The notes beneath the pieces are model-generated. The model ran no database searches, had not been told where the DNA came from, and was given only the letters and a program-made list of their open reading frames with translations. From positions 69,192,001 through 69,256,000 of the forward strand of contig OZ024740.1 in the NCBI GenBank assembly GCA_964016885.1: 64,000 nucleotides of DNA, read 5' to 3'. The translations under genes and the position numbers were made by a program. Of the stretch, positions 44,428-54,860 are shown one piece after another (positions within the stretch are counted from its first letter, which is position 1; each line of letters opens with the position of its first letter). Source of the stretch: Eledone cirrhosa. Its lineage: Eukaryota.

Positions 44428-44660
44428 GATTGGGGCTACTCCACCCCTCCCCTCTTTCTCCTACTGGCAGGTTTAGCCACCATCTCCCCTACTAATTTGC
44501 AACCACAGAATTACTACTGATTTTTGACAATCACTTTGACCATATATGGAATTACCCCTTGAGAAGATCGGCTATTTAAATACCAGGATAAATTTTCATT
44601 TATTCCAGAATTAGCCGTCGAAACGGCTTGAGCTCAGCTGTCGGGGTCTTACTGGTTCCT
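44428..44660 (+). mobile_element. Solo 3' pLTR fragment of the Naiad-type Penelope family
   Basis: Near-identical to 54640-54872, ends at the same base before (TA)n. Confidence 0.92.
44554..44647 (+). ncRNA. Type I hammerhead ribozyme, U3-A8 variant
   Basis: Same motif as 54767-54860. Confidence 0.85.
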
Positions 44661-44786
44661 ATATATATATATATATATATATATATATATATATATATAT
44701 ATATATATATATATATATATATATATATATATATATATATATATATATATATATGTATGTATATATATATATATATATATAAATAT

Positions 44787-45757
44787 ACTAGCATTAAAGC
44801 CCGGCGTTGCTCGGGGTCAGTAAGTTACCAAAGTTAGGTTGCACCACCCATTTTATGGCACCACTTTTTTGTCTGCCAGGCACTGGGTGAATGAATTGCA
44901 GACCTGGACTGCCGAAGCAGGAGCTGCGTCAGCAGTGACAATTGTAGTTTCGCCTATGGATATTATCTCTGTGCAAAGAAGTGTTGAAATTTATTGCTTC
45001 ACAGTACTTGCGCAACACGCGCGTAGACGATGCCAGCCGAACAACAGAGCTGCGATGGAGTTGTTCTGCATGGTCGTCTAATGTGTGTTTTCTAAATTTA
45101 GGACAGTAGGGGGGTGTGTGATATGGGGGAGGATTAGCTGCTGTTTCTAGCAGGTTTAGTGACCTCATAAAGGATATGATTTCTAAATTTAAGACAGTAG
45201 GGAGTGGTGTGATATGGGGGAGAGTTAGCTGCTGTTTCTAGCAGGTTTAGTGACCACATAGAGGATATTATTGTGTATAGTAAATGAACTGATACTTTTT
45301 CTTCCACGTTCGTTGATAGATGTTTTAAAAAAGATTTATCGCTATTTTTTTTTTTTTGTTGAATAAATTTATCTGATGCTTTTGAATAATTGTTGTTTCG
45401 TATGAAATGTAATAAGTTCTCTTTGTCATTGAAGTATGACCACACTCAAAAACAAACGTTCTCTCTCTCTCTCTTTCCCTCTCACTCTCTCTCTCTCTCT
45501 TTCTTAAAGTTTAAGTGGAGTAGAGAGAGAAATATGATTGCATTAGAGGGGTATTTAATTTTATCGATTATTTCCGTAATTGTGGGTTGGGTGAGTGTAA
45601 ATGAAATAAATAGTCGTTGAGTTAAGTTACACCATTTACAACAATATTACAGAGATTGTGTCGAATCGTGTTTGAAAATGTGCAAATGTATAAACATGGA
45701 ACATGCACACACACACATACACATAACAACAACAATCTGCCTTTTATAGATAATGAT
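44787..45757 (+). mobile_element. Helentron/HINE-like non-autonomous element
   Basis: Begins actagcattaaagcccggcgttgctcggg (hairpin), ends aatctgccttttatagataatgat after a (CA) tract; internal ~80 bp tandem duplication at 45089-45167 and 45180-45257. Confidence 0.5.
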
Positions 45758-45775
45758 GTATATATATATATATAT

Positions 45776-51588: not shown

Positions 51589-53658
51589 ATTGATCTATTT
51601 GCGAAAAGACTTAGATGGAGAACTTTTTTCTATGACAGATATTGCGACAACCAAGACTTCGGCACCAAGGAGAGATTCGGATTTATTACCTACAAATCTC
51701 CGCCCCTGAACCCCTTGCTCGCACCCTTCGAGAATGACCTCTTCCAACTGGTCAAGAACATTAAATTTAAACCCAGACACAACCGATTCCTACAAAAACT
51801 CCGTAGCAACTTAACAGAGTATGATAACACAAATGACATCATGGTGCATTCGGATAAAACTGGGAACCTATACTTTGTCAACCCTGACAGATACCACACA
51901 CTGATCAGGAGCAGCCTAAACTCCACCTATAAAAAGGCCAACCACTCTTGTATCGAGGACATAAATCGAGATGGACAACAAATCACCTCCAGCCTCGGGG
52001 TCGCCGACCGCACGGAACCTCTAGACCCACGGACACCATACTTCACACTGAAGGACCATAAATCCGATTTTGACCGTAAACCCTCCATCAGGCTTATTAA
52101 CCCAACGAAGTCCGACATAGGGAGAATCAGCAAAATAATCCTAGACCGCGTGATACCAAAAGTCAAGCAACACACCCGACTTAGCCTATGGATCAACACC
52201 CAGGAAGTAATCTCCTGGTTCAGCAATATGGAGGATAAACGAGAAACTAAATTCATACAGTTCGACATAGAGAGCTACTATGCTTCAATCACCTTACCGC
52301 TACTTACTGCCGCCTTGGACTTCTCCGAAACACTTGTGCCCATCACCGACCAGGAAAGAAAAATTATCCTCCACGCCAGGAAGACAGTCTTACTCTTTGA
52401 CGACTCTAAATGGATAAAAAGAGCTCCCGACTCACCCTTCGACGTCAGCATGGGCGCCACGGATTCGGCGGAGGTCACAGATCTTATAGGATTATTCCTA
52501 ATAGCCAAACTCACTGATATGTTTCCTGCATTCGGTGGTGGATTGTACCGTGATGATGGGCTCCTTACCCTTAAAGGGTACAACCCCAGTAGTACAGATC
52601 GGGTCCGGAAACAATTAATCAGATTCTTCCGCGACTGGGGATTTAAAATAACCCTACAAACGTCCCTGACCCGAGTAAACTTCCTGGACGTAACCCTCGA
52701 CCTCGAAAACGACCTGTACTACCCATACAGGAAACCTAATGACAATCTGCACTACATCCACCGCCGATCAAACCATCCTAGGAACATCACAAACAACCTG
52801 GTCAAAAACATCTCCCTCCGCATATCCCGTTTGTCAGCTAATGAGCGGATATTCGATGAACAAGCGCCTTATTACAACCAGGCCCTCAAGCGGAGTGGTT
52901 TCCGGGAGGAAATATCCTACTGTCCAGCTCCCATTAGCGGAACCAGCAGGAGACACCGCCGCTCACGCAATGTAACATGGTTCAATCCTCCCCACAACGC
53001 AGAGGTGACTACTCCCATCGGGAAACTATTCTTTAGGCTCATTGAAAAACACTTCCCATTACAACACCGCTACCACAACATAATTAACAAAAATACCATC
53101 AAACTCTCTTACAGCACTACACCAAACTTCGCACAAAACATCGTCTCCTCTAACAACAAAAAACTCAACCCCGATGGCAGAAATAACCTAATTAGCAGTG
53201 GAGAACCGACCAGGAGGTGTAACTGCCCGGATAGATCTATTTGCCCACTCGACAATAGATGCAGAGACCGTAATGTGATCTACCAGTGCAACGTGAGGAC
53301 GGATACCTCCAACAAAGCCTATATAGGACTTACCGCATGTGACTTCAAGACCCGGCTATACCAACATAGACATACCTTCCGAAACCCGGCCCGGCGTCAC
53401 GCCACTACACTTTCGGGCCACATATGGGACCTCAAGGACAACAACATCACCTATGATCTCACTTGGAGATTACTGTCCAGAGCCAATTCTTACACGGGAG
53501 GACGCCGTCCGTGCAATTTATGCTCGGAGGAAACTTTACAAATGCTGTTTTCGACGGACCAACTCCTAAACAAGAAAGATGAACTGGTTACTGCATGTAA
53601 ACATAGATTGCGTAGGACTTACCTCGCCCTCAAACCCCATAATGACCCGGGGGGGTAG
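51589..53658 (+). CDS. Penelope-like RT / GIY-YIG polyprotein, open frame, N-terminus cut at inversion junction
   Basis: IDLFAKRLRWRTFF.., SDKTGN, TLKDHK, RLINP, FDIESYY, MGATDSAEV, YRDDGL, NFLDVT, SNHP, WFNPP, CNCPDRSICPL..C, VIY..YIG, CNLC, CKH; no internal stop; first in-frame ATG at 51841. Confidence 0.95.
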   Translation: MDLFAKRLRWRTFFYDRYCDNQDFGTKERFGFITYKSPPLNPLLAPFENDLFQLVKNIKFKPRHNRFLQKLRSNLTEYDNTNDIMVHSDKTGNLYFVNPDRYHTLIRSSLNSTYKKANHSCIEDINRDGQQITSSLGVADRTEPLDPRTPYFTLKDHKSDFDRKPSIRLINPTKSDIGRISKIILDRVIPKVKQHTRLSLWINTQEVISWFSNMEDKRETKFIQFDIESYYASITLPLLTAALDFSETLVPITDQERKIILHARKTVLLFDDSKWIKRAPDSPFDVSMGATDSAEVTDLIGLFLIAKLTDMFPAFGGGLYRDDGLLTLKGYNPSSTDRVRKQLIRFFRDWGFKITLQTSLTRVNFLDVTLDLENDLYYPYRKPNDNLHYIHRRSNHPRNITNNLVKNISLRISRLSANERIFDEQAPYYNQALKRSGFREEISYCPAPISGTSRRHRRSRNVTWFNPPHNAEVTTPIGKLFFRLIEKHFPLQHRYHNIINKNTIKLSYSTTPNFAQNIVSSNNKKLNPDGRNNLISSGEPTRRCNCPDRSICPLDNRCRDRNVIYQCNVRTDTSNKAYIGLTACDFKTRLYQHRHTFRNPARRHATTLSGHIWDLKDNNITYDLTWRLLSRANSYTGGRRPCNLCSEETLQMLFSTDQLLNKKDELVTACKHRLRRTYLALKPHNDPGG

Positions 53659-54766
53659 ACTAGGGCTATAACACCCCAGTTGCCGATTTTGCAATAGGTA
53701 ACCCCTGCTTGCCAAGGAAGACGTAAGATCTTCTTTGTATTCTTTTATCGCTTCCTTTATTTCCTTCCCCCCTCTCCCCTTTGTCCTTCTACCCCAGCTC
53801 TTCTCCTTTGTCGGCGTCTTTTCTCGCCCACCCGAGGCTGCCCTTTGGCCCCATGTAGCCTTAGTACCCCCACCCCCCCTCCCCTAGTCTTTGATAGATT
53901 TGGCGGACTCCGCCCTTTATAGCAGCTGGCTTAGACCCCGGATACTTTCCCCCTTTTTCCGACCGCTCCCACTATTCTCTGTGCCCTCTATATTTCTTAG
54001 TGGCACATGCCTTATTTTTTCGTTTCAGTATTTCTTGCTTCGCTCTTCTTCTGGGCGGGGTGGATTCTGAATTTATTTCTCCGTATTCTACCTTTATTTC
54101 GTACGAACTTTCATGTAGCTTGTTTTAGATCTTTTAGAGTTAGCATTAGTATATATTTTTCTCGGGACTCAGAATTATTATCTCGTACAAGTTCACTTTG
54201 CTGCACTGGGGCGTTGCTGGCCCGGGATGAAAACCTTTATTGTTTATTTCGTGGTAGTCTCTTTAGTATTTTGGCCCCTTTTGTTGACCCGTCACCGTAT
54301 CATTTACGTACTTATACCTCTTAAAAGGGTCCTTGCCTACCGTCCCACCTAGTTCTCTTACTTATTTCCTTATTTATTCATTTATTTATTTTTTTACTTC
54401 TTTCTTTCTTTCTTTATTTTATTCTCGCCTAACAATAGCCTGACACCTAGGTCGTAGAATTTAATTTACTTTACTTTTCTTTACACTTATTTGCCTTTCT
54501 TCACTCTCAGTATTTTTTTTTTTTTCTTTCCTATTTCTACCCCCCATTGTTCTACCTACCGTTCCGACTTCCTCCCCCTCCCCCTCCCCTGTATCTTCTT
54601 TGACCTCATGCCCAGCTGTAGCTGGCACTACCAACGCTTGATTGGGTCTACTCCACCCCCTCCCCTCTTTCTCCTACTGGCAGGTTTAGCCACCATCTCC
54701 CCTACTAATTTGCAACCACAGAATTACTACTGATTTTTGACAATCACTTTGACCATATATGGAATT

Positions 54767-54860
54767 ACCCCTTGAGAAGATCGGCTATTTAAATACCAGG
54801 ATAAATTTTCATTTAGTCCAGAATTAGCCGTCGAAACGGCTTGAGCTCAGCTGTCGGGGT
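54767..54860 (+). ncRNA. Type I hammerhead ribozyme, U3-A8 variant, long branched stem II
   Basis: acccc-TTGAGAA-ga(t)cggcta..tagccgtc-GAAA-CGGC ttgagctca GCTG-TC^ggggt; predicted cleavage after 54855. Confidence 0.88.

Follow-up and report, generated by a model that had tools for sequence, protein, structure and literature searches.

The window and its two families of Penelope-like elements

The window analysed here is a stretch of 64,000 nucleotides of the Eledone cirrhosa genome (GCA_964016885.1, contig OZ024740.1, positions 69,192,001 to 69,256,000, forward strand). It holds copies of two families of Penelope-like elements (PLEs), termed family 1 and family 2, whose terminal hammerhead motifs have U3-A8 at the core positions where C3-G8 is canonical. 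We judge it rather probable, at about seven chances in ten, that these are the terminal-repeat hammerhead motifs of two distantly related families of the Hydra clade, in which U3-A8 has replaced C3-G8, likely with the 3-8 pair kept and likely in separate events.

The main copy of family 1 (51587..54875, +) is 5'-truncated and ends in (TA)n; relative to the 3,544-bp unit of a tandem array found elsewhere in the genome, it lacks the ATG and about 27 codons. Its open frame of 689 amino acids (aa; 51589..53658, +) encodes a reverse transcriptase (RT), a CxCX5C linker and, at the C-terminus, an endonuclease of GIY-YIG type, with the motifs CxxC, CxH, RWR and DKT, and is followed by a type I hammerhead motif (54767..54860, +) with stem I ACCCC/GGGGU, the U3-A8 core at 54772-54778, a long stem II, GAAA at 54833, a 5-bp stem III with a palindromic loop and a predicted cut after 54855. 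In addition to this copy, there is an inverted copy of the family 1 3' untranslated region (UTR) with a tail of about 80 nt (50498..51580, -; core 50677-50671, predicted cut after 50594), as well as a short 5'-truncated 3' end of 233 bp containing a complete hammerhead motif (44427..44659, +; core 44559-44565). Family 2 is represented by two inverted, 5'-truncated arms that retain the endonuclease region only (45996..48483), are 92% alike and together form a 2.5-kb palindrome. One arm carries a minimal hammerhead motif (48385..48427, +; core TTGATAA at 48390-48396, predicted cut after 48421) with a palindromic ACGUACGU stem III and an A10.1/C11.1 mismatch, and the same A10.1 mismatch is found in the second motif (46047..46089, -; core 46084-46078).

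All five are type I hammerhead motifs whose core is U3-A8, parsing in the order stem I, N3-UGA-N-N8-A, stem II, GAAA, stem III, UH and stem I, and they are likely to be self-cutting. A preliminary description of this DNA had reported TTGAGAA three times in family 1 and TTGATAA in both arms of family 2, and these heptamers are present, at 44559 (+), 50677 (-) and 54772 (+) and at 46084 (-) and 48390 (+), respectively, the coordinates given in that description being the starts of stem I rather than of the heptamers. The cut sites that it predicted, at 54855 and 48421, are correctly placed, and its account of the family 2 motif as minimal with a palindromic stem III is borne out, as is the dissimilarity of the two 3' UTRs, between which no match exceeds 22 nt (best E 0.87). 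The family 1 stem II, which it described as long and branched, is long and is predicted to be an unbranched hairpin with internal loops. A descriptor search of the window returned six U3-A8 hammerheads, the five above and one at 19236, and none in any of 30 dinucleotide shuffles. The sixth, a minimal motif of a third family (19232..19274, +), has the core TTGACAA, a GTAC/GTAC stem II and a CAGCGCTG stem III; this third-family motif was found again at two other loci (L132 and L144).

Assignment to the Hydra clade

On their domain order and motifs, families 1 and 2 are Hydra-clade PLEs. Published Hydra elements have a C-terminal endonuclease without the CCHH zinc finger, an RWK-like motif and DKT, a CxCX5C linker, and CxxC and CxH around a conserved E and N (Craig et al., 2021; PMC8557442). 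The full family 1 open reading frame (ORF), read from its ATG in the tandem array, places the RT region first and the endonuclease at the C-terminus; the ATG lies 191 nt past the predicted cut. Read by eye, the endonuclease is of the GIY-YIG type and lacks CCHH. The linker and endonuclease motifs are CNCPDRSIC, CNLC and CKH in family 1 and CNCRDRGGC, CQLC and CKH in family 2, with RWR/DKT in family 1 and RWK/DKT in the family 2 relative L316. Insertion is at (TA)n: in the window, as for many copies across the genome, the ends adjoin TA runs. The family 1 protein matches Hydra-1_Obim motif by motif, in a comparison by eye (the trees below used unnamed homologues), and L316 and L317, relatives of family 2 whose frames are long, also have the Hydra motifs, at 44% identity to family 1 over the RT. 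Pfam returned no hit for the family 1 or the family 2 protein. Published Hydra elements share with these families the domain order, the motifs, the (TA)n targets and the hammerhead at the 3' end; in contrast to them (C3-G8, 'generally <3 kb'; PMC8557442), the family 1 unit is 3,544 bp long with a 1.2-kb 3' UTR.

U3-A8 as a family state

U3-A8 is the state of both families and not decay, as the preliminary description had proposed. Searched with a family 1 pattern in which positions 3, 7 and 8 were free, the 3.0 Gb of genome gave 4,596 matches (reversed control, 0), of which only 24 have G8 (5 C3-G8 and 19 U3·G8). The first 100 matches in position order comprise 83 U3-A8 and 17 C3·A8, with no G8, and position 7 varies among G, T, C and A by subfamily, as expected for a free core position. 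Among family 1 copies picked mostly by their endonuclease or UTR DNA, TTGAGAA is present in 37 of 37 core-spanning rows, which are 99-100% identical. TTGATAA is present in 31 of 33 aligned family 2 copies, a sample biased by selection for similarity to the window copy, and four relatives picked by their RT (L290, L291, L316, L317) are U3-A8 too. The consensus is thus U3-A8 in both families, and a C3-G8 consensus was not seen.

How the pair may have changed is recorded in the subfamilies of family 1. Trees of its 3'-end DNA were built with positions 3 and 8 masked, from 45 of 51 and 57 of 62 rows (short rows being dropped) over about 350 alignment columns; C3 and G8 rows were deliberately enriched, and the search pattern under-samples old copies. 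The trees are ladder-like, and the ladder's direction is based on end-branch lengths, with no outgroup. One end is formed by four U3·G8 copies whose end branches are long (0.05-0.13), followed by older U3-A8 groups, a C3·A8 grade across several supported (starred) nodes, and then a U3-A8 clade (100/95 in the 45-row tree, 82/77 in the 57-row tree) which contains the young family of the window. The five C3-G8 copies lie one by one in different parts of the trees, the pattern expected of later mutations, and C3·A8 copies number roughly 800 genome-wide. We read the ladder as suggesting that the core of an amplifying family 1 lineage stayed unpaired over a long period, until a C3>U change restored the pair; the original replacement would have taken two transitions, first C3>U and afterwards G8>A, with a U·G wobble in between.

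In hammerhead mutagenesis, C3·A8 cleaves poorly. If the natural C3·A8 copies barely cleave, self-cleavage would be dispensable for spread in vivo and yet favoured enough to be restored. Selection on the 3-8 pair looks loose, since the family 1 lineage amplified with the C3·A8 mismatch too, and a phase with an unpaired core fits the behaviour of position 3 and 8 single mutants of the Anolis Poseidon element PAc, which lose cleavage yet insert in vitro (Frangieh et al., 2024; PMC11167929). It is a tentative proposition, for which we would give slightly less than even odds, that family 1 records the core pair evolving via both single-change intermediates and that the same switch recurs in Hydra and Neptune elements of one genome; if true, that recurrence would be a natural experiment on why PLEs keep hammerheads.

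Rescue of C3·A8 by A-to-I editing was considered and set aside: there is no clear excess of G8, which occurs in about 0.6% of C3 copies (5 of roughly 800) versus about 0.3% of U3 copies once the old U3·G8 group is left out, and no support in reverse-transcribed RNAs. Contigs of four sequencing runs, which may come from the source organism and are not independent, include a C3 variant and no variant at position 8.

A remnant at 35411..35476 (+) is the 3' half of a hammerhead of an older family 1 subfamily, without the 5' core. The preliminary description, which placed it at 35410, rightly saw a G-C pair in stem III; the change had been taken as G-U to G-C, and G-C is instead the older state, G·U being found only with the youngest subfamily among the 40 rows listed. 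Short, often palindromic 3'-half copies of the family 1 hammerhead with its tail are common (seen at L030, L040, L043, L019 and L004 as well as in the window), with 16 half versus 5 full hammerheads in the loci that had been collected for other families, 0.9 Mb in all.

Predicted folding and cleavage

The minimum-energy structure of the family 1 motif is the hammerhead itself, with pair probabilities of 0.61-0.98 for helices I-III as a monomer, and its stem III is predicted to be able to form a dimer duplex too. Stem II of family 2 faces competition from the 5' strand of stem I. Among 33 copies in the genome, position 10.1 varies, G being commonest (16 G, 8 A, 7 T, 2 gap), and in a G10.1 copy stems I and II reach 0.96-1.0, versus 0-0.16 in the A10.1 copy of the window, where a rival helix reaches 0.82. 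The window copies of family 2, which lack the G10.1-C11.1 pair, are therefore predicted to misfold and are likely, by this model, to be inactive. A monomer fold is predicted for family 1, dimerisation via the palindromic stem III would be required in family 2, and read-through RNA from tandem copies would be cut to unit lengths by the motif 191 nt upstream of the next ATG. A candidate pseudoknot in family 1, pairing ACCAG of stem II with CUGGU of stem I, was rejected, as it is not conserved from one subfamily to another.

Several results weigh against the main reading. The family 1 fold is no more stable than that of shuffled sequences (z about -1), and covariation within the family is not above control, its score being reached by 153 of 500 shuffles in a test in which most positions were already fixed by the search pattern. 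In the one reconstituted PLE, PAc, cleavage is not needed for insertion in vitro (PMC11167929). An alternative that we consider improbable is that the motifs have little or no catalytic activity and are retained for ribonucleoprotein binding, as an RT start site or for folding, with U3-A8 the product of A/T mutation bias and hitch-hiking. The unpaired C3·A8 core of about one sixth of family 1 copies, forming its grade across several supported nodes, would agree with it, as would the variable position 10.1 of family 2, the insertion of cleavage-dead PAc mutants and the weak cleavage of minimal PLE hammerheads (Cervera and de la Pena, 2014; PMC4209133). It accounts poorly, however, for the occurrence of U3 together with A8 in at least nine unrelated families, each with its own paired stem II, and for the recovery of a paired core from C3·A8 in the clade of the youngest family 1 copies. 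Of 147 matches from the U3-A8 families, 140 are paired at each of the three stem II positions left unconstrained, and their stems have at least eight different sequences (the loci overlap, and the counts are not independent).

Distribution of U3-A8 and the RT trees

U3-A8 had been put forward as a clade-level trait, and the distribution of core types does not agree with this. All 26 Hydra rows of the published File S2, which represent 25 of 27 families and include Hydra-1_oBim, are C3-G8 (PMC8557442). A metagenome set contains 77 Hydra-type loci, of which 58 reach the endonuclease end; among these 58 there are 30 C3-G8, no U3-A8, one odd core and 27 without a call. An odd core, TTGAATA, lies downstream of the ORF at one metagenome Hydra-type locus (L248). 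Within the Eledone cirrhosa genome, all 36 of the 36 motif calls for the intact Hydra family F11, obtained from 23 of 30 loci, are C3-G8, and Hydra families F12 and F15 are C3-G8 as well. F11 (L260-L289) has an ORF of about 745 aa, open in many copies, and a hammerhead with an all-A/U stem III, TATATA, with U15.2-A16.2.

In a 22-row RT tree, a subset of a 58-row tree in which the sub-lineage of interest and four outgroups were kept, families 1, 2 and F11 fall into one sub-lineage (support 100/100) together with the Argonauta protein P0079; the closest homologue with a name in this sub-lineage is from Argonauta. Within it, one group unites family 1 with F13, P0001 and P0013 (98/94), and another unites family 2 with F11 and others (87/91). 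The core type thus does not map onto a single U3-A8 clade: families 1 and 2 as one clade are rejected (approximately unbiased test, p=0.005, to which long branches and short rows apply). F13, the nearest relative of family 1 in the genome, has at two loci (L310, -; L311, +) a motif resembling a hammerhead, in which CAGAAGA (U4 to A) stands at the core and, in either of these copies, no clear UH site is seen.

A generic U3-A8 pattern gave 25,362 matches in the genome (control, 347), the first 100 of which belong to eight sequence families, 68 of them to one (some rows double-count one motif). In 12 of the 13 long frames examined for this commonest family, F3, a Neptune-type ORF of 775 aa is followed after about 1.05 kb by the hammerhead. 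The protein has a C-terminal endonuclease with CCHH, a CX4CX2C linker, GLKF and DKG (for Neptune, CX2-5CxxC, GxKF and DKG are characteristic), as well as Pfam RT and GIY-YIG hits, and was assigned to Neptune by eye, in comparison with the Neptune rows of the published figures (PMC8557442). The idea that F3 might be a Naiad was dropped, the full ORF running from RT to a C-terminal endonuclease. The Neptune-type family with this commonest U3-A8 hammerhead is young and intact (L352-L363), and most of its dispersed copies seen are very short inverted pairs. The parent elements of U3-A8 families F4, F5, F7, F8 and F9 were not found, and a link of F10 to a Hydra endonuclease at L138 was insecure, the common sequence starting past a TA run, and was not used. 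U3-A8 hammerheads also occur in 316- to 321-bp tandem repeats at L149 (G000:C1:6.52 Mb) and L315, like those of non-LTR retrozymes.

Over the whole genome, about 30,000 matches to U3-A8 motifs represent at least nine families; a looser canonical C3-G8 pattern gave 133,836 matches (control, 3,520), the two counts not being like for like. The roughly 160,000 hammerhead-core matches, about one per 19 kb, are far above the 4,000-9,000 given for coelacanth and Xenopus, obtained with a different descriptor. U3-A8 is thus a frequent minority state in two superfamilies, being spread over Hydra and Neptune elements, and is best read as recurrent.

Alternatively, U3-A8 might be ancestral in the Hydra sub-lineage that holds both families, with sister families having returned to C3-G8; we regard this as unlikely, to a slightly greater degree than catalytically dead motifs. 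It would suit the joint membership of families 1 and 2 in that well-supported sub-lineage with Argonauta P0079 and the changes of position 3 in both directions within family 1; also to its advantage, and to the detriment of separate origins, several rows of the sub-lineage lack a hammerhead state (F14, F16, P0001, P0013, P0034, P0059, P0079, P0109). An ancestral U3-A8 would nevertheless require at least two double reversions. It sits badly with the uniform C3-G8 of the intact F11, with the C3 and G8 that F13 has in its odd CAGAAGA core, and with the U3·G8 state of the longest-branch family 1 copies, which resembles a recent arrival from C3-G8.

There is next to no chance that the elements are Naiads with overlooked hammerheads, as the label 'Naiad-type' in the preliminary description would imply: Naiads likewise insert at (TA)n and are reported without canonical hammerheads (octopus Naiads being listed with 'half cores'), but they have an endonuclease N-terminal to the RT, DKA and a CCHH zinc finger (PMC8557442), whereas the translations of families 1 and 2 have DKT and no CCHH, and the RT-first order with a C-terminal GIY-YIG domain, refuting in itself, stands beside the other Hydra hallmarks of the ORF and the likeness to Hydra-1_Obim. 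The published Naiad consensus file, searched five times for exact words (a weak test), returned no U3-A8 hammerhead, and the swap in the present families tells nothing about Naiads.

Relation to known hammerheads

The U3-A8 swap in itself is already published. It was described in 2011 as a natural covariation and stated to be active in vitro from earlier work (Perreault et al., 2011; PMC3088659), where, in the accessible text, it is neither tied to PLEs nor traced through subfamilies. In 2014 it was reported in PLEs, in the Cercyon elements of Schistosoma mansoni, with about 1,300 hits (Cervera and de la Pena, 2014; PMC4209133). The present motifs resemble those of Cercyon in being type I motifs of a PLE terminal repeat with U3-A8, in their many dispersed single copies, in the palindromic stem III and in G10.1-C11.1, which the window copies of family 2 lack. 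The hosts here differ from Cercyon in being of Hydra and Neptune type; at least nine families contribute about 30,000 matches, and the family 1 motif, with a stem II region of 54 nt and a stem III of 5 bp, is predicted to fold as a monomer. The Poseidon element PAc (PMC11167929) is similar in having a hammerhead near the ORF start in tandem copies, an optional tail beyond the main 3' end and AT-rich targets; in contrast to families 1 and 2, its core is C3-G8. The Anolis ribozyme depended on the protein of its element. A literature search returned no report of U3-A8 in Hydra or Neptune elements, of a mismatch phase or of a subfamily ladder (PMC1986816, on tolerance of 3-8 exchanges, PMC5850863 and PMC5785218 were outside its scope and might report such), no cephalopod hammerhead report beyond Craig et al. 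(2021), and no prior report of about 30,000 U3-A8 matches in at least nine families of one genome.

The preliminary description had also warned that such elements could be wrongly scored as ribozyme-less, and this holds in part. The core-only search of Craig et al. (2021; PMC8557442) was seeded on CUGANGA, and searches that demand this core would miss about 30,000 matches in this genome, beside about 134,000 canonical ones (the patterns not being like for like). Rfam, in contrast, gives no such specific failure: over the whole window only microsatellite-driven matches were found among the best 150 of 337, and targeted scans found no hammerhead at the U3-A8 motifs, but canonical C3-G8 hammerheads were missed too, in four test loci, and the miss is therefore not specific to U3-A8. 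A DNA search with the family 1 hammerhead as query gave 0 matches, in a program that skips very common words. For the role of the hammerhead in PLEs, the natural U3·G8 (as at L094), U3-A8, C3·A8 (L077) and C3-G8 (L388) versions of one ribozyme, ordered on a subfamily tree, are ready test constructs.

Other features of the window

Canonical C3-G8 motifs of other repeat families, with U·U at 10.1/11.1, are found in the window at 38381 (-), 37885 (-), 35200 (-) and 25937 (-). A near-perfect palindrome of 560 bp (43142-43704) had 0 matches among the fetched loci. The window also contains a 907-aa non-LTR retrotransposon frame (1200-3923, -; Pfam RVT_1 and zf-RVT) and fragments of a related non-LTR element (5424-6494, -).

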